Positions 4,008-35,185 of a DNA stretch of 64,000 nucleotides are shown in pieces. Below the pieces are notes generated by a model. It was not told the DNA's origin and made no database searches. It saw nothing but the letters and a program-made list of their open reading frames with translations. Positions within the stretch are counted from its first letter, which is position 1, and each line of letters opens with the position of its first letter. The translations under genes and the position numbers were made by a program. The DNA is from Nitrospirota bacterium (GTDB lineage Bacteria; Nitrospirota; UBA9217). The stretch spans positions 32,001-96,000 of the forward strand of contig JAOUEV010000001.1 in NCBI GenBank assembly GCA_029858565.1, in the 5' to 3' direction.

Positions 4008-4523
4008 ATGTTCAAGAATATCATCCTCACCGGATTCATGGGCGTCGGCAAAACGAGCGTAGGCACGAGGCTGGCAAAGGACCTCGGATTTACATTTATC
4101 GATACCGACAGCCTCATTGAAGCCGACCAGAAGATCTCGATCACCGAGATATTCTCCTCTTTTGGCGAACCCTACTTCCGCGACGTGGAGACCCGCATCA
4201 TCGGCCAGGTGCTCGAGAACGAGAATCAGGTCGTGTCGACCGGCGGCGGGGCCGTGATCCGCGAGGAGAACCGGGCTGCTTTCAAGGAGAAGGGCATGAC
4301 GGTCTGTCTCATGGCGCGGCCTGAGGTGATCTACGACCGCATCAAGCATGAGACGCACCGGCCGCTCCTGCAGGTGGCCGAACCCCTGGCAAAGATCCGC
4401 GAGCTCCTGGCGACCCGGGAGCCATTCTATCGCCAGGCTGATATCATCATCGACACCTCGGACAAGACCGTGGATGGGGTGATCGCCGAGATCCGGGGAA
4501 AGGTCCGGTATGCATGTTGTTAA
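4008..4523 (+). CDS. aroK: Shikimate kinase
   Basis: GFMGVGKT P-loop, GEPYFR, STGGG and RPLL motifs. Confidence 0.97.
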   Translation: MFKNIILTGFMGVGKTSVGTRLAKDLGFTFIDTDSLIEADQKISITEIFSSFGEPYFRDVETRIIGQVLENENQVVSTGGGAVIREENRAAFKEKGMTVCLMARPEVIYDRIKHETHRPLLQVAEPLAKIRELLATREPFYRQADIIIDTSDKTVDGVIAEIRGKVRYACC

Positions 4524-5592
4524 AGTCGCGCTGGGCGACCGCAGCTACGATATACTGATCAACGCGAAGCTCGACGACCTGGGCGGCCAGATGGAGAATC
4601 TCCGGCTGGGCCGCAAAGCAGCCCTGGTGACCAATCCCACGGTGAACCGCCTCTACGGCAAACGCGCGCTCGCCAGTATCACCGCAAAGCAGTTCATCGC
4701 CATGCCCATCGAGATCCCCGACGGGGAGCAGTACAAGAACCTCGACTGGGCCAATGCCATCTATACCGCGCTGCTCCTCAACGCTTTTGACCGCCGGTCG
4801 CCGCTGGTCGCGCTGGGCGGAGGGGTCATTGGAGACCTCACGGGATTCGCCGCGGCCACATACATGCGCGGGATCCCCTTCATCCAGGTGCCGACCACGC
4901 TCCTCGCCATGGTGGACAGCAGCGTTGGCGGCAAGACCGGAGTGAACCACGCCATGGGCAAGAACATGATCGGCGCGTTCTATCAGCCCCGGCTTGTGCT
5001 CATGGACCTGGAAGTGCTGAAGACCCTGCCGAAGGAAGAGTTCCTTTCGGGCATGGCCGAGGTGATCAAGTATGGCGTTATCTGGGACCGGGAGCTGTTC
5101 GACTATCTTGAGAAGAACCGCGAGAAGATCCTTGCCCTGGAACAGGGTGCGCTCAGCCACATCATCAGCCGCTCCTGCGAGATCAAGGCGGAGGTCGTGA
5201 GCAAGGACGAGCGCGAGGGCGGGCTCCGCGCCATCCTGAACTTCGGCCACACCGTGGGCCACGCTGCCGAGACCCTGGAGAACTACACCATGCGCCATGG
5301 TGAGGCCGTTGCCATCGGCATGGTCTACGCGTCCCGGTTCGGCCACCGTCTCGGGCTCTGCGACGCGAAGACCGCTGAGCGGACCGAACAGCTCATCGCC
5401 GCGTATGGCTTGCCGACCGGTCTGTCGGCTCTCAAGAAGCGTCCCACGGTCACCCAGCTCCTGGACACCATGCTCGTGGACAAGAAATCCGAGGGAGGCA
5501 CGATCAAGTTCGTGCTGCCGAAGAAGATCGGCGAGGTCGTGCTCACCAGGGAGTGGGATGAGAAGACGCTTCGAGAACTGCTTGCGGAGTGA
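4510..5592 (+). CDS. aroB: 3-dehydroquinate synthase
   Basis: GGGVIGD, PTTLLAMVDSSVGGKTGVN and LNFGHTVGHA motifs. Confidence 0.98.
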   Translation: MHVVKVALGDRSYDILINAKLDDLGGQMENLRLGRKAALVTNPTVNRLYGKRALASITAKQFIAMPIEIPDGEQYKNLDWANAIYTALLLNAFDRRSPLVALGGGVIGDLTGFAAATYMRGIPFIQVPTTLLAMVDSSVGGKTGVNHAMGKNMIGAFYQPRLVLMDLEVLKTLPKEEFLSGMAEVIKYGVIWDRELFDYLEKNREKILALEQGALSHIISRSCEIKAEVVSKDEREGGLRAILNFGHTVGHAAETLENYTMRHGEAVAIGMVYASRFGHRLGLCDAKTAERTEQLIAAYGLPTGLSALKKRPTVTQLLDTMLVDKKSEGGTIKFVLPKKIGEVVLTREWDEKTLRELLAE

Positions 5593-5613
5593 AGAGCGGA
5601 ATAGGGGGGCATC

Positions 5614-6312
5614 GTGAGCGAATATCTCTGGCACTGCCCGTTCTGCGATACCGATCAGATCGTTTCCTCAGAGGGCATGCAGGCATCCTTTTCCGACCTG
5701 ACCGCGGAAAATGCCGAAGGGCCGCGCAGGCTCGTGGTCAAGTTCGTTGTCTGTCCCAATCCCAAGTGCAGGCAATTCGCCCTTGATGCATCGCTGCATC
5801 TTCTGACCATCTCCGGGAACAGGGGGTACACGGGAAAACACCTCAAGACCTGGAACCTCGTCCCGCCTTCGCGTGCCCGCACCTTTCCTGTTTCGATACC
5901 CCGTGCAGTGCTGGAAGATTACCGCGAGGCTTGTCTGGTCGCTGAAACGAGCCCCAAGGCCGCGTCCGCATTGGCGCGGCGATGCCTGTCGGGCATGCTG
6001 CGGGACTTCTGGAGCGTGCAGCCCGGGAGTCTGAGCGACGAGTTCCGGCAGGTCAAAGGGACCGCGGATCCGCTCACCTGGGAAGCCGTCGAATCCGTGC
6101 GGAATACCGGCCTTATCGGACCGCGCATGGAGAGCGAAGGGGCTGAGATCCAGGACTCGGAGCCAGGCGAGTCGCAGCTCCTGATCGGTTTGATCGAGAC
6201 GCTTATCCATGACTGGTATGTCAACCGGGATGTACGGCGAAAACGACTGGCTGAGATCAAACAAATAGCGGAAACAGGAAGGTCGGAACCGGCTGTACCA
6301 TCGGCAGAGTGA
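5614..6312 (+). CDS. DUF4145 (HEPN-like) domain protein with N-terminal Zn-ribbon
   Basis: CPFC and CPNPKC; EDYREAC...SPKAASALARRCL typical of DUF4145; GTG start after a GGGGG RBS. Confidence 0.75.
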   Translation: MSEYLWHCPFCDTDQIVSSEGMQASFSDLTAENAEGPRRLVVKFVVCPNPKCRQFALDASLHLLTISGNRGYTGKHLKTWNLVPPSRARTFPVSIPRAVLEDYREACLVAETSPKAASALARRCLSGMLRDFWSVQPGSLSDEFRQVKGTADPLTWEAVESVRNTGLIGPRMESEGAEIQDSEPGESQLLIGLIETLIHDWYVNRDVRRKRLAEIKQIAETGRSEPAVPSAE

Positions 6313-6509
6313 CGATCGTTATGAAGATTGGTCCACTGATATTCTTGACCGCCATACTCGCTGGTACATTTCTTGGCTGCGCTTACAAGGAGTACGACCC
6401 TGCCCATCCCCGGGAATATGGCGATTTCTGGTCGGACGAAGATAACAGAAGAAACAGCGCCGCCTATCCGTTTACGAACGAGTATCGGGAGCAGCGCAGG
6501 GATCGATAA
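6309..6509 (+). CDS. Small putative lipoprotein
   Basis: Hydrophobic signal peptide with LGC lipobox; overlaps the upstream stop. Confidence 0.55.
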   Translation: MTIVMKIGPLIFLTAILAGTFLGCAYKEYDPAHPREYGDFWSDEDNRRNSAAYPFTNEYREQRRDR

Positions 6510-6562
6510 CATCTATCATCGGCATAAGAACCGAGGAAAATATGCCGGCTAGTGAAAAGAAT

Positions 6563-6604
6563 AAAAAAGGGGGATGGACATAATGTCCATCCCCCTTGCT
6601 TTTT
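6563..6604. terminator. Bidirectional intrinsic terminator
   Basis: 14-bp stem AAGGGGGATGGACA-taa-TGTCCATCCCCCTT flanked by A and T runs, between convergent genes. Confidence 0.9.
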
Positions 6605-6619
6605 CAGCAGTTCGATCTG

Positions 6620-7855
6620 CTACTTCGCCGAAGACGTATGCTTCTCGGCGCGGAGCTTGGCGGCCTCATCCTTGATCTTCTGGAGCGTTTCCTTCATGGG
6701 CGCCCAGCCGTACCAGTGCATGTAGTCCGGGTTCATGTGGAACGCTCCCTGGAAGGCGCGCATCCGGTATTCCAGGAACATGACGTAGAGGTCCTGCTCC
6801 ACGCTGCTCTTGGCTTCGTAGAACTGCAGAAGGTCGGGGGCTACGGCCCAGTCCGCGGGCTTCTTGAGCACGCCGTCCTTGTACAGAGCCTGCACCACGC
6901 GGACGGCTTCAGCCATGATCTTATCCGCTTCCTTTACCACCAGGTCCGCCTCATCCAACTGCTTCTTCGCGTAGGACGCGCCATGGCAGTTAGCGCAGAC
7001 CTTGGTCATCTTGTCGCGCTCGGCCTGGAACTCCTCGGCAGTGAGACGGGCGACCTTGCCCGCCTTCACCAGTTCAAGCCGCGCGGTGGGTTTGCCAGCT
7101 TCATCCAATACGCCCAGTGCCTGCAGGATCGCGACACGATCGTTCATCCAGTCCTTGTCGTTCTCCGGCAGCCGAAGGGCCAGGAAACCCCAGGAGGTCA
7201 TCACATTATGGTCGCCGCCGCTCATGTGGCAGGTCTGGCACGTGGGGCCGCGCTTGCTGTCCTTGCCTTCGATCGACCAGATGACGCCGTGCTTGGACGA
7301 AGACCACATCTCCCACTGGGGGTGGTCGAAGCCCATGTGGCAGGTCTGGCAGGCCCGCGGGTCCTGGGCCTCGGACTTCTTGAACGAATGCCGGGTGTGG
7401 CAGGAATCGCACTGTGCGTGACCGTAACGGATCTGCGACTTCTCCGCGTCCGACTTGACGCCGATCTTGTGGCAGCTTGAACAGCCTTTGTAGCCCTCAC
7501 CGGAAACAGCCTTGGGCTGGTGGCCCATCATGGGCATGGAGCTCGATGCTACCCACGCAAGGTTGTGCTTGCCTGCTGAGAACTGGTCAGCCTGCTTCTT
7601 GTGGCAGTTGGCACAGGTTGCGGGGGTCGGCATCTTGGCCAGCTTTGCATCGGTCATCGTTTTGTGGTCTGAACCGTGGCAGGCCGAGCAGTCGATGCCC
7701 TTCTTGCCCATCTTGCCCTCGAAGTGCTGCTGCACCACGCCGGGAGTCACTTTCTCGTGGCACTCCACGCAAGCGCTCTTTCTGGGAGCGGACCACGCCG
7801 CGGTGCTGATGAGAACAGCACAGCTCACTAGGAACAGAACTTTCAGAAACTTCAT
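6620..7855 (-). CDS. Periplasmic octaheme cytochrome c, hydroxylamine oxidoreductase (HAO)-like
   Basis: Signal peptide, eight CxxCH motifs, CHTRHSF, GFDHPQWEMW and C-terminal HMNPDYMHWYGW; AGGAGG RBS. Confidence 0.9.
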   Translation of the reverse strand: MKFLKVLFLVSCAVLISTAAWSAPRKSACVECHEKVTPGVVQQHFEGKMGKKGIDCSACHGSDHKTMTDAKLAKMPTPATCANCHKKQADQFSAGKHNLAWVASSSMPMMGHQPKAVSGEGYKGCSSCHKIGVKSDAEKSQIRYGHAQCDSCHTRHSFKKSEAQDPRACQTCHMGFDHPQWEMWSSSKHGVIWSIEGKDSKRGPTCQTCHMSGGDHNVMTSWGFLALRLPENDKDWMNDRVAILQALGVLDEAGKPTARLELVKAGKVARLTAEEFQAERDKMTKVCANCHGASYAKKQLDEADLVVKEADKIMAEAVRVVQALYKDGVLKKPADWAVAPDLLQFYEAKSSVEQDLYVMFLEYRMRAFQGAFHMNPDYMHWYGWAPMKETLQKIKDEAAKLRAEKHTSSAK

Positions 7856-7931
7856 GCAGATTTCCTCCTTGGGATGGAATAATTGCAATTTGAGAAGTCC
7901 TCGCACCCTAGCTTAACCGTAGCCTGATTGA

Positions 7932-7947
7932 TATGATCTATATCATA
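7932..7947. promoter_or_regulatory. Crp/Fnr-type palindrome upstream of the HAO-like gene
   Basis: Perfect inverted repeat TATGAT-CTAT-ATCATA resembling TTGAT-N4-ATCAA. Confidence 0.55.
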
Positions 7948-8067
7948 GTTCCGCGACAAGTGCAGGGCGGGCCGGCTGGCGTCTTGAAAAAGCAGAGTCA
8001 TAGTAGTAGGTTACAGCTCATTCGCCTAATCCGGACAAGCCTGAATTGAACCTTAACTTAATCCACC

Positions 8068-8949
8068 ATGCCGCCAACTTGGGTACTCCTCTCACTCTTA
8101 AGCGCTTTCTGTCTTGCCACGAGCGATGCGCTGACCAAACGGGTCATCACGCATGAGAACGAATATATCATCGGCTGGTTCCGGATCCTTTTCGGGATCC
8201 CCGCGCTTTTTGCCGCTCTGATGCTTTCGGGCCCTCTTCCGCTGATCGACGGGCCTTTTCTCTGGTCCTTTGCGGCGGCCCTTCCTCTTGAGATTGCAGC
8301 AATCCTGCTCTATTACAAGGCGCTTCGTCTTTCGCCGCTCAGTCTTTCCTTGCCGTTCCTTTCCTTCACTCCGGTCTTCCTGATCTTGCTGTCCTTTGTC
8401 CTCGTCGGCCAGAGGGTCTCTCCCCTGGGCGCTCTGGGCATCGCCTTGATCGGACTGGGAGGGTACACGCTGAACCTGTCAGCGTTGCGCTCCGGCTTTC
8501 TGGAACCTTTCCGTGCGGTTGCCCGTGAGCGGGGATCGCTCTATATGCTGATCATCGCGCTGATCTACAGCGTCACCTCGGCGCTCGGAAAGATCGGCGT
8601 GGACCATTCATCGCCCGCGTTCTTCGGATTCACCTACTTCCTGGCGCTTGCGGTCTGCATGCTGCCGATCCTTGTTCGTCAGTGCGGCAGAGAACGGCTG
8701 GTTCCCCTTCTGAAGAGCACTACCCGGATAGCGCTGCTGCCCGCGCTGTTCGACGTCATGGCCACGGTGGCCCATTTCTACGCCGTCAGCATGGCCAACG
8801 TGGCCTATATGATCGCGGTCAAGCGGAGCAGCCTGCTGATCGGGACGATCTATGGCTTCGTGTTGTTCCGGGAAATGAATATACGCGAGCGGCTGGTCGG
8901 TGCTGCGCTCATGTTCGCGGGCTTTGTCGTGGTGGTGATCGGGGGGTAA
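8068..8949 (+). CDS. EamA/DMT family transporter
   Basis: About 10 TM helices in two repeats; ALRLSPLSL...SFTPVF and YMIAVKR motifs. Confidence 0.9.
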   Translation: MPPTWVLLSLLSAFCLATSDALTKRVITHENEYIIGWFRILFGIPALFAALMLSGPLPLIDGPFLWSFAAALPLEIAAILLYYKALRLSPLSLSLPFLSFTPVFLILLSFVLVGQRVSPLGALGIALIGLGGYTLNLSALRSGFLEPFRAVARERGSLYMLIIALIYSVTSALGKIGVDHSSPAFFGFTYFLALAVCMLPILVRQCGRERLVPLLKSTTRIALLPALFDVMATVAHFYAVSMANVAYMIAVKRSSLLIGTIYGFVLFREMNIRERLVGAALMFAGFVVVVIGG

Positions 8950-31478: not shown

Positions 31479-32741
31479 TCAGCGTGATGGTCTGCGGGGC
31501 GGGCGGCCTCCGCCCGGACCCGAGCGGTGCCGGGGCGGGGGAGCGCTCTGCCGCTTTTGTTCAGCCTGTTGGCGTTCTTCGGCAGTGCGACGGATCTCCT
31601 TATGGTACATATCGTCGGTCGCCCAGCCCGTAGGGACTTTCTGGCCGATGTACGCTTCGATGGCTTCGAGGGAATAGACATACTCTTCGCAGGCAAGACT
31701 GATCGCTTTGCCCTCGGCACCGGCCCGGCCGGTCCTGCCGATGCGGTGCACATAGTCCTCGGCGTCCTGGGGAAGGTCGTAATTGATGACGTGGGTGATG
31801 CCTTCGACATGGATACCCCGGCTCGCGACATCGGTAGCCACGAGGACCGGCAGCCGGCCACCCTTGAAATCGTCGAGAAGCTTGAGGCGCTTCTTCTGAA
31901 GTATCTCCCCGGTGATCGCGGCGGCCTTCCAATTGTTCCTGATGAGGCGCTCAACGACCATTTCAGCTGCGCGGCGCGTGTTCACGAAGACGATCGCGCG
32001 CTCGGGTTTTTCCCGGGAGAGAATGCCCAGCAGCAGGGGGACCTTTTCATGCTTGCCCACGTGGTACAGGATCTGGTCAACTTTTTCCACCGTGACCTGC
32101 TCGGGAGTGATCGAGATCTTTTCCGGCAGGTTCATGAACTCGTAGGCCAGTTCCATGACCCGGTAGGAGAGCGTTGCGGAAAAGAGCATGGATTGGCGTT
32201 TGGAGTAGTCGGGGAGCTTGCGAAGCAGGTAGCGGAGGTCATCGATGAAGCCCATGTCGAACATGCGGTCCGCTTCGTCGATCACCAGGTACCGGGTTTT
32301 CTTGAGGCTGTAGACGTGCTGTTTGTAATAATCAATGAGCCTGCCCGGCGTGCCGATCAGGACATCGACTCCCTTGGACAGCGTATCGCGTTGTTTTTCG
32401 TAGTCAATGCCGCCGTACACGGCGAGGAAGCGGAAACCGGTGAATTTCCCGAGCCGCTCAGCTTCGTGGAATATCTGGTCGGCCAACTCACGCGTGGGCG
32501 CGATGATCAGCGCCTGCGGGGAATCGCCGGGGTCCACCACCGGATTGCGGGTCATGCGGGAGAAAAGGGAAATGAGGAAGGCCGCGGTCTTTCCCGTCCC
32601 GGTCTGCGACTGCGCGGCGACATCTTCGCCTCGCACGGCGCGGGGGATTACCTGCTCCTGAACCTGCGTGCAGGTCGTAAAGCCGGAATGCTCGATGCCT
32701 TGTTGTACTTCGTAGGGAAGATCAAAATCGCTGAAGTTCAT
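31479..32741 (-). CDS. rhlB: DEAD-box RNA helicase (RhlB-like)
   Basis: Q motif, TGTGKT, PTRELA, DEAD, SAT and HRIGRTGR. Confidence 0.88.
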   Translation of the reverse strand: MNFSDFDLPYEVQQGIEHSGFTTCTQVQEQVIPRAVRGEDVAAQSQTGTGKTAAFLISLFSRMTRNPVVDPGDSPQALIIAPTRELADQIFHEAERLGKFTGFRFLAVYGGIDYEKQRDTLSKGVDVLIGTPGRLIDYYKQHVYSLKKTRYLVIDEADRMFDMGFIDDLRYLLRKLPDYSKRQSMLFSATLSYRVMELAYEFMNLPEKISITPEQVTVEKVDQILYHVGKHEKVPLLLGILSREKPERAIVFVNTRRAAEMVVERLIRNNWKAAAITGEILQKKRLKLLDDFKGGRLPVLVATDVASRGIHVEGITHVINYDLPQDAEDYVHRIGRTGRAGAEGKAISLACEEYVYSLEAIEAYIGQKVPTGWATDDMYHKEIRRTAEERQQAEQKRQSAPPPRHRSGPGGGRPPRRPSR

Positions 32742-33198
32742 GGGTCCGATCGTTGCGAAGACATTTTGTCAATGATTGTCGGCCACTACTATACCATAAA
32801 TGCTGGAGACGACAAAGGGAAAAGAACAGGTGCGATCGTCATCAGCGATACAGACTGTTGACTAAAGTGACTATAAGGACAGATACGCTCCCCTATTGTT
32901 GTTCCGTTAAATGGTGTGATGTCATGCTCATTCCGTGAAAGGACGATGTGCTTCCTGCCGGAGCGCACAGCGGAGTTTGGCGGGAAAAACAGCATTTTCT
33001 CGTCTACGATCGCCAGGATCATGCGATTCGGCCGCGATGAAGTGAAAAAGCGCATAATAATTTCATGATGAAGAGAACAAGTATAATTGTGAATAATCCG
33101 CATAAAACAAAAAAATAAAGTACACATTTTAATTGGTGTTGATATAACTGTTGATAAATTGTCTAACATGAGGAAAGATAATTTTTTATTTTTTTCTG

Positions 33199-33245
33199 TT
33201 GACAAATTATGAACTCTTGTTGTATATTTGTCCACGAGGTGAACA
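33199..33245 (+). promoter_or_regulatory. Promoter with operator-like palindrome upstream of the wHTH-MNT gene
   Basis: TTGACA-18 bp-TATATT; TGTCCAC-gag-GTGAACA inverted repeat (33229-33245) over the predicted +1 and RBS. Confidence 0.6.
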
Positions 33246-33249
33246 GAAG

Positions 33250-33816
33250 TTGCTATCGAAACTCTTCTCTTCAACGAGAGCCGAACTTCTGAGCCTGTTC
33301 TTTAACAATCCGGACGAGAAGTTCTACCTCAGGGAGATCGCCCGGCATATCGGCAAGGACGCGGCCGGTATCAAGCGGGAGCTCGATACCCTGGTGAAGA
33401 TCGGGCTCCTGGCCTGGGAAAAGCGGGGAGTGCAGAAGTACTACTTCGCAGACAAAGGCTCCCCGATCTTCTCGGAAATGAAAGGCCTGATCTTCAAGAC
33501 CACGGGCGTGCAGGGCGCGATCAAGGCGGCGCTCACGAGGCTCAAAGGGGTGCAGGCGGCATTCATCTACGGCTCCTTTGCCAAGGGTTCGGAAAAAGAG
33601 GACAGCAATATCAACCTGATGGTGATCGGCCAGGTGAACATCACGGAACTGAACGACGTGGTGGTAGGGCTCGAAGAGAAGCTGAAACGCGAGATCGACT
33701 ACCTGGCCTTTGACGAGCAGGAATACCGGAAACGGAAGGAAACGAAGGACCCCTTCATCCGGGAGATCGTGAAAGGAAAAAAGCTCATCCTGCTGGGCAA
33801 GGACGATGACGTATGA
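33250..33816 (+). CDS. wHTH plus minimal nucleotidyltransferase (MNT) domain protein with degenerate catalytic motif
   Basis: LFSSTRAELL...YLREIAR...IKREL wHTH; IYGSFAKGSEKEDSNINL in place of GSx10DxD; TTG start after GAGGT. Confidence 0.85.
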   Translation: MLSKLFSSTRAELLSLFFNNPDEKFYLREIARHIGKDAAGIKRELDTLVKIGLLAWEKRGVQKYYFADKGSPIFSEMKGLIFKTTGVQGAIKAALTRLKGVQAAFIYGSFAKGSEKEDSNINLMVIGQVNITELNDVVVGLEEKLKREIDYLAFDEQEYRKRKETKDPFIREIVKGKKLILLGKDDDV

Positions 33817-34288
33817 AGCGCTCCAAGAGATGGGGCTGGAGGAGCGGGCACCTGAGATCGCCGAAGTAATGGGTCTGATGATACGGGCCGAGCGCGATCT
33901 GGCAACGGCCCGGTTGCTCCAGGACAAGGACGAGGAATGGTCCTACGCCGCGGCGTATCAAGCCATGGCCCGGTCCGGGAGAGCGCTCATCATGTCCGAG
34001 GGATACCGGCCCAAGGGGCCCCGGAGCAGGGATACCCATAAGACAGTAGTGACCGCTTCGGGAGTGATCCTGGGCGATAAGTTCAAGAGCCTGATCAATA
34101 AGTTCGACCGGATGCGCAGGAAGTACCAGAACTTCATGGTCGAGAGCGTAAGCATGGTATCCCGTTATGAAGCAGGGCAGGCCATCAAGGACGCGGAAGA
34201 GCTCTTCGGGATCGTAAGTTCACGGCTGCGGGAAAAGTACTCGCAGATGTCATTGCTGAACGATGTACCTCAGCTCGTATCCAGATAA
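33806..34288 (+). CDS. HEPN-domain protein with degenerate RNase motif
   Basis: AERDL..A, AYQAM...ALI..EGYRP, HKTVV, FDRMRRK(YQNFMVE); overlaps the MNT gene. Confidence 0.8.
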   Translation: MTYEALQEMGLEERAPEIAEVMGLMIRAERDLATARLLQDKDEEWSYAAAYQAMARSGRALIMSEGYRPKGPRSRDTHKTVVTASGVILGDKFKSLINKFDRMRRKYQNFMVESVSMVSRYEAGQAIKDAEELFGIVSSRLREKYSQMSLLNDVPQLVSR

Positions 34289-34333
34289 AGGCCGCTTGAA
34301 TCGAATGCGGTGACCGAAAGGGGGTGGACAACA

Positions 34334-34393
34334 ATGCCGGCGAAGAAGAAAGCTGCCAAGAAGAAGGCGAAGAAAAAGGCGAAGAAAAAGTAG
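34334..34393 (+). CDS. 19-aa Lys/Ala-rich micropeptide MPAKKKAAKKKAKKKAKKK
   Basis: Strong RBS AAGGGGGTG, ATG...TAG, followed by a hairpin; paralog 195 bp downstream. Confidence 0.75.
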   Translation: MPAKKKAAKKKAKKKAKKK

Positions 34394-34423
34394 TCTTTGA
34401 ATACATTGCCCCGAGATGGGGAA

Positions 34424-34447
34424 ACGCCGGGGGATCTCCCCCGGCGT
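34424..34447 (+). terminator. GC-rich hairpin after the first micropeptide
   Basis: ACGCCGGGGG-atct-CCCCCGGCGT followed by a weak AT-rich tail. Confidence 0.6.
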
Positions 34448-34528
34448 CATTTAATCAATAATTCGTCCGCAGTCGAGGACGTTTTCCAGGGCTTCGCCCC
34501 TAACCTAAGCAAGGAAGGAGATCGAAAC

Positions 34529-34588
34529 ATGCCCGCAAAGAAAAAAGCCCCGGCCAAGAAGGCCAAGAAGACCACGAAGAAGAAATAG
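34529..34588 (+). CDS. 19-aa Lys/Ala-rich micropeptide MPAKKKAPAKKAKKTTKKK
   Basis: RBS AAGGAG, ATG...TAG; same MPAKKKA start as the first copy but with synonymous codon differences. Confidence 0.75.
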   Translation: MPAKKKAPAKKAKKTTKKK

Positions 34589-34638
34589 CTGTGCCGAGCC
34601 TGTCAGGACGGCCATGCTCAAAAGCCATGAATATGGTT

Positions 34639-34672
34639 ACCACGAAGGACGTCTTCGTGGTTTTGTTTTTTT
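34639..34672 (+). terminator. Intrinsic terminator after the second micropeptide
   Basis: ACCACGAAG-gacgt-CTTCGTGGT followed by TTTGTTTTTTT. Confidence 0.85.
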
Positions 34673-34846
34673 ATGGGAAGAAGAAAGAGCGGTTCAGAAC
34701 ACCCGTCGAGCCGAACACACGTTGTGGTACGGAGACGGACGTGAACGTGCTCTTCTGTCCGGTGAGGTCTTCGCGCGGATGATCTGACCTCCCCACATTT
34801 GAAATATCCGGCCGCTTGCTCTATAATGCGGTCGGATGGCTGAATT

Positions 34847-35185
34847 ATGGCAAGACGAAACTATGTACGGACCCCCCGCAGTCTGAAACGCACGGCCGGC
34901 AGGAAGAAACTGGTGATTGCCGCGGCCGTGGTAGCCGGGATTGCTTTGCTCTGGTCCCTGGTAATGGGAGAGATGGGGCTGGTGAAGTACTTGCGGATGA
35001 AGAACCAGGAGAATGCCCTGCGCGTCGAGATCGATCACCTGACCCAGGACAACCGCCGCCTGCTGCAGGAGGTCAAGGCGCTCAAGTACGATGCCGCGTA
35101 TCTGGAGCGTCTTGCCCGGGACAAGATCGGCCTCGCCCGTCCCGGCGAGATCGTCTATTATTATGGCGATGTGGAGGTGCGGTAA
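34847..35185 (+). CDS. ftsB: Septum formation initiator FtsB/DivIC
   Basis: TM helix, coiled coil, LERLARDKIGLARPGEIVY. Confidence 0.88.
   Translation: MARRNYVRTPRSLKRTAGRKKLVIAAAVVAGIALLWSLVMGEMGLVKYLRMKNQENALRVEIDHLTQDNRRLLQEVKALKYDAAYLERLARDKIGLARPGEIVYYYGDVEVR

Follow-up and report, generated by a model that had tools for sequence, protein, structure and literature searches.

The window analysed here, 64,000 nucleotides from a Nitrospirota bacterium, contains two overlapping plus-strand genes that look like an MNT-HEPN toxin-antitoxin (TA) pair in which both catalytic centres have been replaced. Among predicted TA modules of prokaryotes, HEPN/MNT is described as the most abundant (PMC7641770, in the sections cited here), and censuses count PDC-M05, whose models these genes match, as a candidate defence system (PMC12988326, likewise in the part cited). 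The question is whether such a pair is still a working TA module, is a decaying remnant, or has been domesticated for another role.

Both genes are intact and both catalytic motifs are replaced

The first gene (33250 to 33816, plus strand) encodes a 188-residue protein that starts at TTG and combines a predicted wHTH (approximately residues 1 to 70) with a pseudo-nucleotidyltransferase, or MNT-like, domain (approximately residues 90 to 188). From the sequence, we read a Shine-Dalgarno GAGGTGA (33236 to 33242, plus strand) 7 nt before this TTG, and class orthologues have TTG or GTG at the aligned place. We rejected a 205-residue ORF starting at 33199 because its TTG belongs to the −35 hexamer of a promoter (TTGACA-N18-TATATT), GAGGTGA precedes 33250, and most orthologues are 188 residues long. 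The second gene (33806 to 34288, plus strand) encodes a 160-residue pseudo-HEPN partner of the PF05168 type. It overlaps the MNT-like gene by 11 nt (ATGACGTATGA), through which the two are translationally coupled; the overlap is −11 nt in 27 of 30 class loci and −14 nt in 2, and the remaining locus has the same geometry by tblastn. Full-length overlapping frames and host-like codons (GC3 0.79 and 0.74 for the pair versus 0.76 to 0.83 in the neighbours) are as the initial annotation described them.

Profile searches bore out the assignment of the pair to MNT and HEPN families in both Pfam and PADLOC. The MNT-like protein matched Pfam Polbeta PF18765 (37.3 bits, cut-off 26.9) and PADLOC PDC-M05A model PDLC04368 (1e-54); PF01909 fell just below its cut-off (20.9 bits, cut-off 21), and NCBIfam MntA_antitoxin scored 25.8 bits against a cut-off of 60. 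Its MNT-like profile matched the MNT structures 9xbd_E, 8xeh, 2rff, and 5yep. For the wHTH, the HVO_A0114 family PF25212 reached 27.0 bits against a cut-off of 27.6, the remaining HTH families were also under cut-off, and the profile matched ArsR/SmtB structures with E values from 1.4e-4 to 1e-3. The HEPN protein had PF05168 as its sole HEPN Pfam match (36.9 bits, cut-off 22) and matched PADLOC PDC-M05B model PDLC04374 (3.9e-17). A profile search of the PDB found AF0298 (2hsb, E 2e-4), and a single-sequence search of the PDB with the HEPN protein gave chance-level matches only. A search of the ESM Atlas confirmed the family level and nothing finer.

The MNT motif, YGSFAKGSEKEDSNINL, reads GS-x10-N-x-N (G108-S109, N120-I-N122), where the wHTH-MNT family has GS-x10-DxD. 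The S-N-I-N at 33604 to 33615 (plus strand) replaces the S-D-x-D metal-binding pair of the family; its codons AAT (33607 to 33609, codon 120) and AAC (33613 to 33615, codon 122) are both in frame and each is one transition from an Asp codon, so this claim of the initial annotation stands. Profile alignment to 5yep places N120 and N122 on the MntA D39 and D41 columns and D150, within R-E-I-D-Y (33688 to 33702, plus strand), on that of D71, the third metal ligand, which is described as a Mg ligand in MntA (PMC7641770, section cited). The family residue at the D150 column is Asn (REINY) in 122 of 146 representatives; D150 is kept in 30/30 class loci, with codons GAT in 22 and GAC in 8.

The former RNase and acceptor motif of the HEPN protein, DRMRRKYQNFMVE (34106 to 34144, plus strand; residues 101 to 113), was said to have neither R-x4-6-H nor a nearby downstream Tyr, and we found neither. 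Relative to the nearest canonical motif, FNRMRxKRHDFIYE, it has Y107 for Arg, Q108 for His, and V112 for Tyr. The V112 column is Tyr in FNRMRxKRHDFIY, in LREESDY (2hsb), and in LRNRSDY (9xbd_A), and in a set of canonical partners, assembled from Nitrospirota paralogues and the results of a protein search, His is present in 117/120 and Tyr in 118/120. Across the 30 class loci D-R-M-R-R-K is invariant, residue 107 is Y in 28 and H in 2, residue 108 is Q in all 30, and the former Tyr site is E in 21, V in 7, A in 1, and L in 1. PF05168-type (class II) HEPN partners are described as having no RX4H but a conserved Tyr (PMC7641770, section cited). Because class II HEPN proteins generally lack RX4H, the telling losses are that of the Tyr and those of the Arg and His that are present in the nearest relatives.

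The replacements are conserved in a core, single-copy gene pair

DxD occurs in none of the 120 closest homologues of the MNT-like protein: the second motif position is N in 120/120, and the first is N in 110, S in 5, D in 3, and G in 2. In the wider wHTH-MNT family, GS and DxD are both present in 137 of 146 cluster representatives, a contrast that exceeds chance. NxN is found in 30/30 class loci, each Asn codon being AAC in 22 and AAT in 8, which is synonymous variation. Frames are intact in all 30 class loci fetched, and dN/dS is 0.056 for the MNT-like gene and 0.110 for the HEPN gene, compared with 0.083 for the neighbouring helicase and 0.213 for ftsB. The conservation of NxN and of the YQ that the initial annotation had singled out, together with the dN/dS values and the lack of any close homologue with DxD, supports its proposal of domestication over decay or a lone relaxed copy.

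The pair sits between a DEAD-box helicase gene and an FtsB/DivIC gene, within a wider neighbourhood of beta-oxidation genes, a GH57 gene, and a radical SAM protein gene; these are housekeeping surroundings without defence embedding. The gene is present in 58/64 class genomes and in 32/32 high-quality class genomes, at the same position. Each class genome gives one full-length match, and second rows occur only in genomes G209 and G227, where the copies are apparently broken. The order helicase-MNT-HEPN holds in 29/30 class loci, the 30th locus being truncated. The divergence of the pair correlates with helicase divergence (Spearman 0.57 and 0.74, from related genomes that are not independent). 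Both catalytic-site replacements are fixed under strong purifying selection, in genes that are single-copy and syntenic.

Orthologues in other Nitrospirota classes

Degenerate orthologues also occur in other Nitrospirota classes, where the cassette lies convergent with lpxC in 20/20 loci. The synteny with rhlB and ftsB that the initial annotation pointed to thus holds within the class and fails outside it, and the ancestral neighbour is lpxC, not rhlB/ftsB. In these orthologues the MNT motif is DxN in families f6 and f14, GS is lost in f2, and the solo clade reads GP and x-V-[DN] and has lost 2 residues. The residues at the HEPN His and Tyr positions vary by sister family (W/D, A/D, E/K). We regard these genes as orthologues on the strength of the convergent lpxC and of the Lys-rich ORFs that follow the cassette. 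Because the catalytic residues degenerate differently among orthologues, the shared function cannot need these residues.

Many orthologues in other classes are without any HEPN gene. With the query used, HEPN was not detected in f13 (0/5 genomes), f20 (0/4), f24 (0/5), f26 (0/7), or f27 (0/5), and in f11 it was found, as a weak match, in 1/23 genomes. Matched loss in both partners, as first proposed, describes the class but not these lineages, which lost HEPN altogether. Conservation across all lineages is highest in the wHTH. Paralogues with canonical DxD and RH-Y motifs occur in Nitrospirota sporadically and at other positions; in an unrooted tree the canonical and core lineages are separated at an SH-aLRT of only 87.

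A candidate operator brackets the promoter

Upstream of the pair lies a sigma-70-type promoter (33199 to 33228, plus strand) with TTGACA, an 18-nt spacer, and TATATT (11/12 consensus matches), which is conserved in 29 aligned class loci. It is one of only two plus-strand promoter-like sites in 32700 to 34900, the second lying at 34799, before ftsB. The upstream palindrome mentioned in the initial annotation was found over this promoter, as an inverted repeat (33198 to 33235, plus strand) with arms GTTGACAAAT (33198 to 33207) and ATTTGTCCAC (33226 to 33235) that are 10 nt long, 90% complementary, and 18 nt apart. This candidate operator brackets the promoter and has one match in the 3.9-Mb genome. 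All 29 class loci show a palindrome-like pattern; in other families it is perfect in f2 (TGTTGACAA-N21-TTGTCAACA) and 10/11 in f14, and in f6 the right arm is not evident. Because the left half is the −35 box, only the right arm counts as independent evidence. Promoter and palindrome are conserved although synonymous sites are saturated (median dS 1.3).

Farther upstream, a conserved box, GTTGATAAATTGTCTAAC (33150 to 33167, plus strand), reads as a compact imperfect palindrome built from the half-site that the candidate operator has. Its columns are at least 95% conserved in 29 class loci, within an otherwise unalignable 500-nt spacer; a regular expression for it matches 28/29 class loci, and no further match with up to 3 substitutions was found across the 3.9-Mb genome. 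The candidate half-sites are GTTGACAA, TTGTCCAC, and the box at 33150.

An intrinsic terminator-like hairpin with a T-run (34639 to 34671, plus strand; 10-bp stem with 5 GC pairs, tail TTTGTTTTTT) is the only plus-strand terminator-like site in 32700 to 34900 and probably marks where the transcription unit ends. A search of Rfam with 32700 to 34900 returned only sX6 (E 0.67; 14.4 bits against a gathering score of 40), which we took as chance. Among RNA-library contigs, none spans 33100 to 33207. Contigs from two studies start at 33242 to 33243, and we did not count this as a transcription start.

Lysine-rich mini-ORFs downstream of the pair

Two Lys-rich mini-ORFs lie between the HEPN gene and the hairpin: mini-ORF 1 (MPAKKKAAKKKAKKKAKKK; 34334 to 34393, plus strand), with Shine-Dalgarno GGGGGTGG upstream, and mini-ORF 2 (MPAKKKAPAKKAKKTTKKK; 34529 to 34588, plus strand), with Shine-Dalgarno AAGGAAGGAGA. 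Each encodes 19 residues. They belong to the conserved unit and were absent from the initial annotation. No other such Lys-rich ORFs occur in the 3.9-Mb genome. One to three Lys-rich ORFs passed our filter downstream of the cassette in 48/50 loci, and the other 2 loci have them by eye, ending in ...KKKKC; the same filter found 0/50 upstream, 0/50 on the opposite strand, and 0/13 at paralogue loci. The MNT-like gene stays linked to Lys-rich ORFs even where the cassette has moved or HEPN has been lost.

Mini-ORF 1 begins 45 nt past the HEPN stop, and our scan found no plus-strand promoter-like or terminator-like site in between. In relatives, RNA-library contigs extend over both genes and run from HEPN into mini-ORF 1, which does not by itself prove a single transcript. 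From the absent scan hits and these contigs, we infer that the mini-ORFs are co-transcribed with the pair. The summed RNA depth over mini-ORF 1 is very high and unusable as an expression level, because the sequence is of low complexity and draws many loose-ended contigs from other organisms. Third-position codon bias in the mini-ORFs is partly circular as evidence of translation, because a protein pattern had been used to choose the rows. We also considered the Lys-rich ORFs as attenuator leader peptides and rejected this, since lpxC is convergent in 20/20 loci outside the class and there is therefore nothing downstream for them to attenuate. A literature search on small lysine-rich Nitrospirota proteins listed no relevant work.

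Interpretation and alternatives

We put the probability at roughly 0.6 that the locus is an exapted, catalytically inert class II HEPN/MNT (PDC-M05-like) module, now passed on vertically as a housekeeping operon within part of the Nitrospirota. Judging from the sequences, the pair is most likely a DNA-binding regulator and not a toxin system, because both catalytic centres are lost yet the core operon is strictly conserved, always with the Lys-rich genes, and the module probably autoregulates an operon whose cargo is poly-lysine mini-proteins. In the mechanism that we propose, a dimer of the wHTH-pseudoMNT protein would bind the GTTGACAA...TTGTCAAC palindrome bracketing its own promoter, plus the upstream box. 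This binding would autoregulate one transcript that encodes pseudoMNT, pseudoHEPN, and the Lys-rich mini-proteins and ends at the 34639 terminator. The surface through which the MNT-like domain dimerises and binds its partner would be retained, as perhaps would nucleotide binding, and AMP transfer would be lost; the pseudo-HEPN would be a non-catalytic co-regulator or sensing subunit that is dispensable in sister lineages. The conserved output of the cassette would be the poly-lysine mini-protein or mini-proteins, probably nucleic-acid binders.

A bolder version, which we hold only tentatively, is that a TA or defence module was captured deep in the Nitrospirota and rebuilt as a housekeeping switch. 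The dead pair would be a sensor of a nucleotide or of some other signal and would control or chaperone an undescribed family of poly-lysine (AKKK-repeat) mini-proteins of 15 to 75 residues. These would be H1-like nucleoid or RNA binders, and the function of the locus would rest with them and not with the enzyme relics.

How much chemistry survives in the MNT-like domain bears on these readings. Asn can ligate Mg, as in protein kinases. A one-carboxylate metal or nucleotide site may survive, because G108-S109 and S119 are retained and the class has D150 where the family has Asn. The domain could still bind nucleotides or be a weak enzyme with a rearranged triad, N120/N122/D150, serving as a ligand-sensing switch or acting on a new substrate; G-S and S119 are conserved in the protein while their codons vary synonymously, the two motif sites specifically keep Asn, and the D-for-N swap at the MntA D71 position is fixed in 30/30 loci. 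Orthologues in the same lpxC and Lys-ORF context nevertheless lose GS, delete 2 loop residues, or carry a non-polar first site, and DxD-to-ExE substitutions are described as abolishing AMP transfer by MntA (PMC7641770, section cited), all of which makes a rearranged triad unlikely. We find it somewhat harder still to accept that the proteins are not transcription factors but partners of the Lys-rich mini-proteins, serving a polycationic nucleic-acid binder as its chaperone, antidote, or assembly factor. Such a role would fit the persistence of the MNT-like/Lys-ORF linkage through relocation and HEPN loss, and the fact that the only two such ORFs of the genome sit at the window locus, but the wHTH is the best conserved part and the promoter carries a conserved palindrome. 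A role of this kind can coexist with autoregulation.

That the pair is a working TA or defence module is improbable. The HEPN protein would have to be toxic via a non-canonical site (e.g., R102-x-R104-R105-K106) and the MNT-like protein would neutralise it by binding, as in type II systems, not by AMPylation. The layout of a TA operon (gene order, 11-nt overlap, wHTH autoregulator), the strong PADLOC PDC-M05 matches, the invariance of the basic D-R-M-R-R-K in 30/30 loci, and the description of class II HEPN partners as generally without RX4H (PMC7641770, section cited) all speak for this reading. However, the pair is a single full-length copy at a fixed housekeeping position in 32/32 high-quality class genomes, its dN/dS is as low as that of the helicase, sister classes keep the "antitoxin" under selection without a HEPN that the query used could detect (apart from the weak match in f11), and canonical DxD/RH-Y paralogues are sporadic elsewhere in the same phylum. 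Decay of a TA remnant under relaxed selection, on its way to pseudogenes, would explain why both catalytic motifs are gone, but we give it a negligible chance given frames intact in 30/30 loci, dN/dS of 0.06 and 0.11, and replacing residues that are themselves conserved.

Under the preferred reading of an exapted, inert module, the locus is a clear case of lineage-wide exaptation: dead catalytic centres in core, syntenic genes under selection of helicase strength. Defence and TA counts based on HMMs will take in such non-defence genes. Because some sister lineages have HEPN and others do not, the locus is also a natural experiment on what MNT and HEPN folds can do once catalysis is gone. Poly-lysine mini-ORFs are strictly linked to the cassette, which suggests that very small basic proteins of a class not yet annotated have a regulator of their own. 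New here are this linkage, the conserved palindrome around a near-consensus promoter, and lpxC as the ancestral neighbour.

Comparison with known systems

Class II HEPN/MNT modules are defined as a PF05168 HEPN beside an MNT of the PF01909 clan (Yao et al. 2020, PMC7641770, in the sections cited here). The window pair resembles them in its Pfam families, its MNT-first order, its overlapping genes, and a HEPN without the class I RX4HXY. It has the adjacent MNT-domain and PF05168 HEPN genes of that class and lacks two of its marks: class II antitoxins, as described there, keep GSX10DXD, whereas the window pair has GSx10NxN, and class II HEPN partners keep the Tyr that is replaced in the window HEPN. 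The window pair is, moreover, a core, syntenic, single-copy operon and not a sporadic module. Our literature search, in titles and abstracts, found no bacterial example of a pseudo-MNT/HEPN pair.

The likeness to type VII HepT/MntA lies in the MNT fold signature, which aligns at GS and at the D39/D41/D71 columns, and in a HEPN-domain partner. The window MNT differs in carrying a fused N-terminal wHTH, the HEPN is PF05168 rather than PF01934 or PF08780, and D39, D41, and Y104-type residues are all absent. Two sequence marks of type VII (class I) are thus absent, GSX10DXD (defined with a third Asp) in the antitoxin and a PF01934/PF08780 HEPN bearing RX4HXY.

In PADLOC, adjacent genes match both PDC-M05 models. 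PDC-M05 is presented as an unvalidated, guilt-by-embedding defence candidate with an unconfirmed antiviral role (PMC12988326, in the part cited), and the window locus differs in lying among housekeeping genes, in vertical inheritance, and in being without catalytic residues. A PDC-M05 call at this locus is probably a false positive for defence.

The MNT-like protein resembles ArsR/SmtB autoregulators in its predicted N-terminal wHTH, which matches their structures, and in the palindrome over its own promoter; in place of a metal-binding helix it has a dead nucleotidyltransferase fold as effector domain, and its HEPN partner is dead too. Solitary or domesticated antitoxins can act as regulators, and eukaryotes have pseudo-nucleotidyltransferases in MiD49/51 and NF45/NF90. 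The latter belong to lineages and contexts unrelated to the window pair, but they likewise have a Pol-beta-type nucleotidyltransferase fold without catalytic carboxylates, reused for binding or scaffolding.

A conserved MNT-HEPN gene pair

Reading of the ORFs places two overlapping genes on the + strand: an MNT gene (33250-33816), encoding a 188-aa protein that we call protein 1, and a HEPN gene (33806-34288), encoding the 160-aa protein 2. The MNT gene starts with a TTG codon, with GAGGTGA and a near-consensus promoter upstream. We rejected a longer MNT ORF from 33199 as an artefact because its TTG start doubles as the promoter's -35 box. Pfam assigns protein 1 to the nucleotidyltransferases of the Pol-beta/MNT type (PF18765, 37.3 bits) and its N-terminus to a winged-helix family, slightly under the cut-off (PF25212, 27.0 bits; cut-off 27.6); protein 2 falls in the HEPN family (PF05168, 36.9 bits). 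A profile built from homologues of protein 1 matches the solved MNT structures 9xbd_E, 8xeh, 2rff, and 5yep (the antitoxin MntA), and its N-terminal part matches ArsR/SmtB regulators; the protein 2 profile matches the HEPN proteins AF0298 (2hsb) and 9xbd_A. In PADLOC, both proteins match the candidate defence system PDC-M05 (1e-54 for protein 1, 3.9e-17 for protein 2), and the NCBIfam MntA equivalog scores well under its cut-off on protein 1 (25.8 versus 60 bits). Across 30 loci from the Nitrospirota class that holds the source genome, the spacing of the two genes is -11 nt in 27, -14 nt in 2, and of the same geometry in the remaining one. GC3 values of 0.79 (MNT) and 0.74 (HEPN) resemble those of neighbour genes. 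The initial annotation's description of full-length, overlapping ORFs with host-like codons holds.

Replacement of catalytic residues in both proteins

Direct reading of the MNT motif, Y-G-S-F-A-K-G-S-E-K-E-D-S-N-I-N-L, confirmed the G-S-x10-N-x-N pattern first noted, with Asn codons AAT at 33607 and AAC at 33613. In profile alignment, the family consensus S-D-I-D columns fall on S38-D39-I-D41 of MntA and the family R-E-I-N-Y column aligns with D71; PMC7641770 gives D39, D41, and D71 as the Mg ligands of MntA. The family search returned 5,427 proteins at E ≤ 1e-3, and GS plus DxD are present in 137 of 146 cluster representatives (the longest among the best 150). None of the best 120 protein 1 homologues (77 to 95% identity; Nitrospirota wherever named) has DxD: the second site is Asn in all 120, and the first is N in 110, S in 5, D in 3, and G in 2. 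Because protein 1 keeps G108-S109 and S119, and because the class has fixed an Asn-to-Asp change at the column equivalent to D71, the sequence leaves room for the MNT-like domain to bind nucleotide or metal without transfer.

The HEPN motif D101-R-M-R-R-K-Y107-Q108-N-F-M-V112-E aligns to F-N-R-M-R-x-K-R-H-D-F-I-Y-E of the closest canonical partners; of 120 such partners, 117 have the His and 118 the Tyr. By this alignment, the Arg, His, and Tyr are therefore all replaced in the window, in agreement with the missing RNase motif and Tyr of the initial annotation. The Tyr column is also that of the Tyr in LREESDY (AF0298) and LRNRSDY (9xbd_A). According to Yao et al. (PMC7641770), class II (PF05168) partners already lack RX4H yet keep a conserved Tyr, so Tyr loss is the cleanest departure. 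All of the best 120 protein 2 homologues carry FDRMRRKYQN, and Q108 is invariant in the 30 class loci; the replaced Tyr site varies freely (E 21, V 7, A 1, L 1). The variability of the class II motif is illustrated by canonical MNT-HEPN paralogues elsewhere in Nitrospirota genomes (L053, 1012-1599; L061/L063), whose HEPN motifs are of other types (RNKRNQAIY, LREDADY).

Conservation and selection within the class

Whole-genome searches (E ≤ 1e-20) detected the MNT gene in 58 of 64 class genomes and in all 32 of high quality (completeness ≥ 90%, contamination ≤ 5%); the genomes compared are kin, and p-values for correlations among them carry no meaning. Each of the 32 has a single full-length match; second matches arose only in two assemblies, where the copies seem broken. 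At G209:C6:919392-920430 and G227:C1:47211-48251, both genes look split or frame-shifted, with stops within the match; these assemblies have few contigs and low completeness (77% and 71%), and the broken copies may reflect assembly error rather than true decay.

Median dN/dS (Nei-Gojobori, pairs with dS < 1.5) was 0.056 for the MNT gene and 0.110 for the HEPN gene; the helicase fragment gave 0.083 and ftsB 0.213. Both Asn codons vary synonymously among the 30 class loci (each AAC in 22, AAT in 8), and the residue is constant. The window pair is thus neither a lone relaxed copy, whose close orthologues would keep DxD, nor decaying: the low dN/dS values and the Asn residues fixed despite synonymous variation bear out the earlier rejection of decay.

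The gene order divergent DEAD-box helicase-MNT-HEPN is found in 29 of 30 class loci, and the thirtieth begins at the MNT gene; ftsB comes next in 23, within loci that extend only about 1.5 kb per side. The wider surroundings are housekeeping genes and one IS transposase. Between 24 and 42 kb, the part examined for context, a single mobile-element gene was seen: a DDE transposase ORF (PF01609, PF05598; 29941-31296, - strand) directly downstream of the helicase.

Promoter, palindrome, and transcripts

The 508-nt spacer upstream of the MNT gene is AT-rich (GC 0.40) and contains a near-consensus promoter, TTGACA-N18-TATATT (33199-33228, + strand). Only four spacer blocks are shared by 95% or more of 29 aligned class loci: GTTGATAAATTGTCTAAC (33150-33167), a second, T-rich block, TGTTGACAAA, and ACTCTTGTTGTATATTTGTCCAC. 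Synonymous sites among the same genomes are close to saturation (median dS 1.3). The upstream palindrome proposed initially corresponds to an inverted repeat around the promoter, with arms GTTGACAAAT and ATTTGTCCAC; it and the 33150-33167 box are each unique in the genome. Among other Nitrospirota families, f2 has a perfect version of the repeat and f14 a nearly perfect one; none is evident in f6. Both promoter and palindrome are conserved.

A simple scan of the + strand found no promoter-like sites in 33228-34799 and no terminator-like sites before 34639, and therefore one transcription unit, running from the promoter to a terminator past the second of two Lys-rich mini-ORFs, is plausible from sequence. 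RNA-library contigs of relatives (four libraries, three studies) cover both genes at 85 to 99% likeness, and three contigs (records 4, 19, and 32) run from the 3' end of the HEPN gene on into mini-ORF 1; such contigs document presence in RNA libraries rather than a single transcript.

Lys-rich mini-ORFs linked to the cassette

Two Lys-rich mini-ORFs with strong Shine-Dalgarno sequences follow the pair on the + strand: mini-ORF 1, MPAKKKAAKKKAKKKAKKK (34334-34393), and mini-ORF 2, MPAKKKAPAKKAKKTTKKK (34529-34588). They are the sole ORFs of this kind in the 3.9-Mb genome. A tiny Lys-rich ORF comes after the pair, or after a solo MNT gene (one without a HEPN gene), on the same strand. Of 50 loci, 48 passed a composition filter for such an ORF no more than 1.3 kb downstream, and none of the 50 passed it upstream or on the opposite strand; at 13 paralogue loci the filter gave nothing on either strand. 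The other two loci, both from f2, have ORFs ending in KKKKRC and KKKKC at the equivalent place. The linkage is obligatory. Each degenerate cassette (window; L003-L051) has one to three Lys/Ala-rich ORFs with AKKK-type repeats and strong Shine-Dalgarno sequences, 12 to 73 residues long; long AKK[KT] repeats are frequent in the solo clade. These ORFs may represent an unannotated family of polycationic mini-proteins.

A GC-rich hairpin between the mini-ORFs (CGGGGGATCTCCCCCG, 34428-34445), without a T-run, may serve in processing or stabilisation, or may terminate transcription weakly. In Rfam, a weak hit to sX6, an sRNA of proteobacteria, overlaps mini-ORF 1 (34337-34462; 14.4 bits versus a gathering score of 40, E 0.67) and is probably due to chance on purine-rich sequence.

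Orthologues in other Nitrospirota families

The MNT gene was matched in 143 of 301 sampled phylum genomes. It is present in every genome, or nearly so, of f2 (6/6), f4 (5/5), f6 (3/3), f11 (23/23), f13 (5/5), f20 (4/4), f24 (5/5), f26 (7/7), and f27 (4/5), at 40 to 55% identity; in the same sample it is missing or nearly so from f3 (0/12), f5 (0/7), f9 (1/50), and f10 (0/28). Searches with the one HEPN query detected that gene in 58 of 63 genomes of f1 (the window's class), 5/6 of f2, 3/3 of f6, and 1/1 of f14, and essentially none in the remaining families; in the loci with a solo MNT gene, no HEPN ORF comes after it.

The active sites of the non-class orthologues are degenerate in differing ways. 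Families f14 and f6 have the MNT motif GS...S-D-[IV]-N, f2 has G-[AI]-S...[DE]-I-D, and the others have G-P...x-V-[DN] together with a deletion of two residues. Among the families with a HEPN gene, the window's class included, the replaced His/Tyr positions of HEPN read Q/V, W/D, A/D, or E/K, family by family. The C-terminal acidic tail of the MNT protein, G-K/R-E/D-D-E/D-x, occurs in HEPN-paired forms and is absent from the solo clade; it may be a HEPN contact or merely the overlap region. Some of these genomes also carry canonical DxD / RH-Y pairs, at other, variable positions. A quick unrooted ML tree has a branch (SH-aLRT 87) that sets 53 rows, comprising canonical representatives, paralogues, and 4 degenerate representatives that stray among them, apart from the core lineages; a single long canonical row, L057, falls with the latter, at the root as drawn. 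The tree recovers the solo clade as monophyletic (100).

The initial annotation had placed the pair between helicase and ftsB, which stands within the class but not elsewhere: lpxC is convergent and immediately downstream of the cassette in 20 of 20 non-class loci, and therefore the helicase/ftsB position is a relocation specific to the window's class. The lpxC neighbour and the Lys-rich ORF show that the cassettes are orthologous. The cassette relocated as one unit, and the mini-ORFs stayed when the HEPN gene was lost. At one of these loci (L047 in G013, 4466-8294), translations alone suggest Sua5/YrdC-like and fliD-like genes upstream of the cassette.

Proposed mechanism and comparison with known systems

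The pair has lost its catalytic and acceptor residues, is under strong constraint, and is core and vertically inherited. We infer that the wHTH-pseudoMNT protein would act as a dimeric autoregulator binding the palindrome, with the pseudo-HEPN as a dispensable partner without catalysis and the Lys-rich mini-proteins, probably nucleic-acid binders, as the functional cargo. The pair would work like a TA-derived autoregulator. In the literature covered, largely abstracts, no account turned up of an MNT/HEPN pair that is core yet catalytically dead, nor of poly-lysine ORFs linked to one. The window pair shares homology with class II HEPN/MNT and PDC-M05 but lacks their defining catalytic features, and compared with MntA, protein 1 has N-x-N at the D39/D41 columns.
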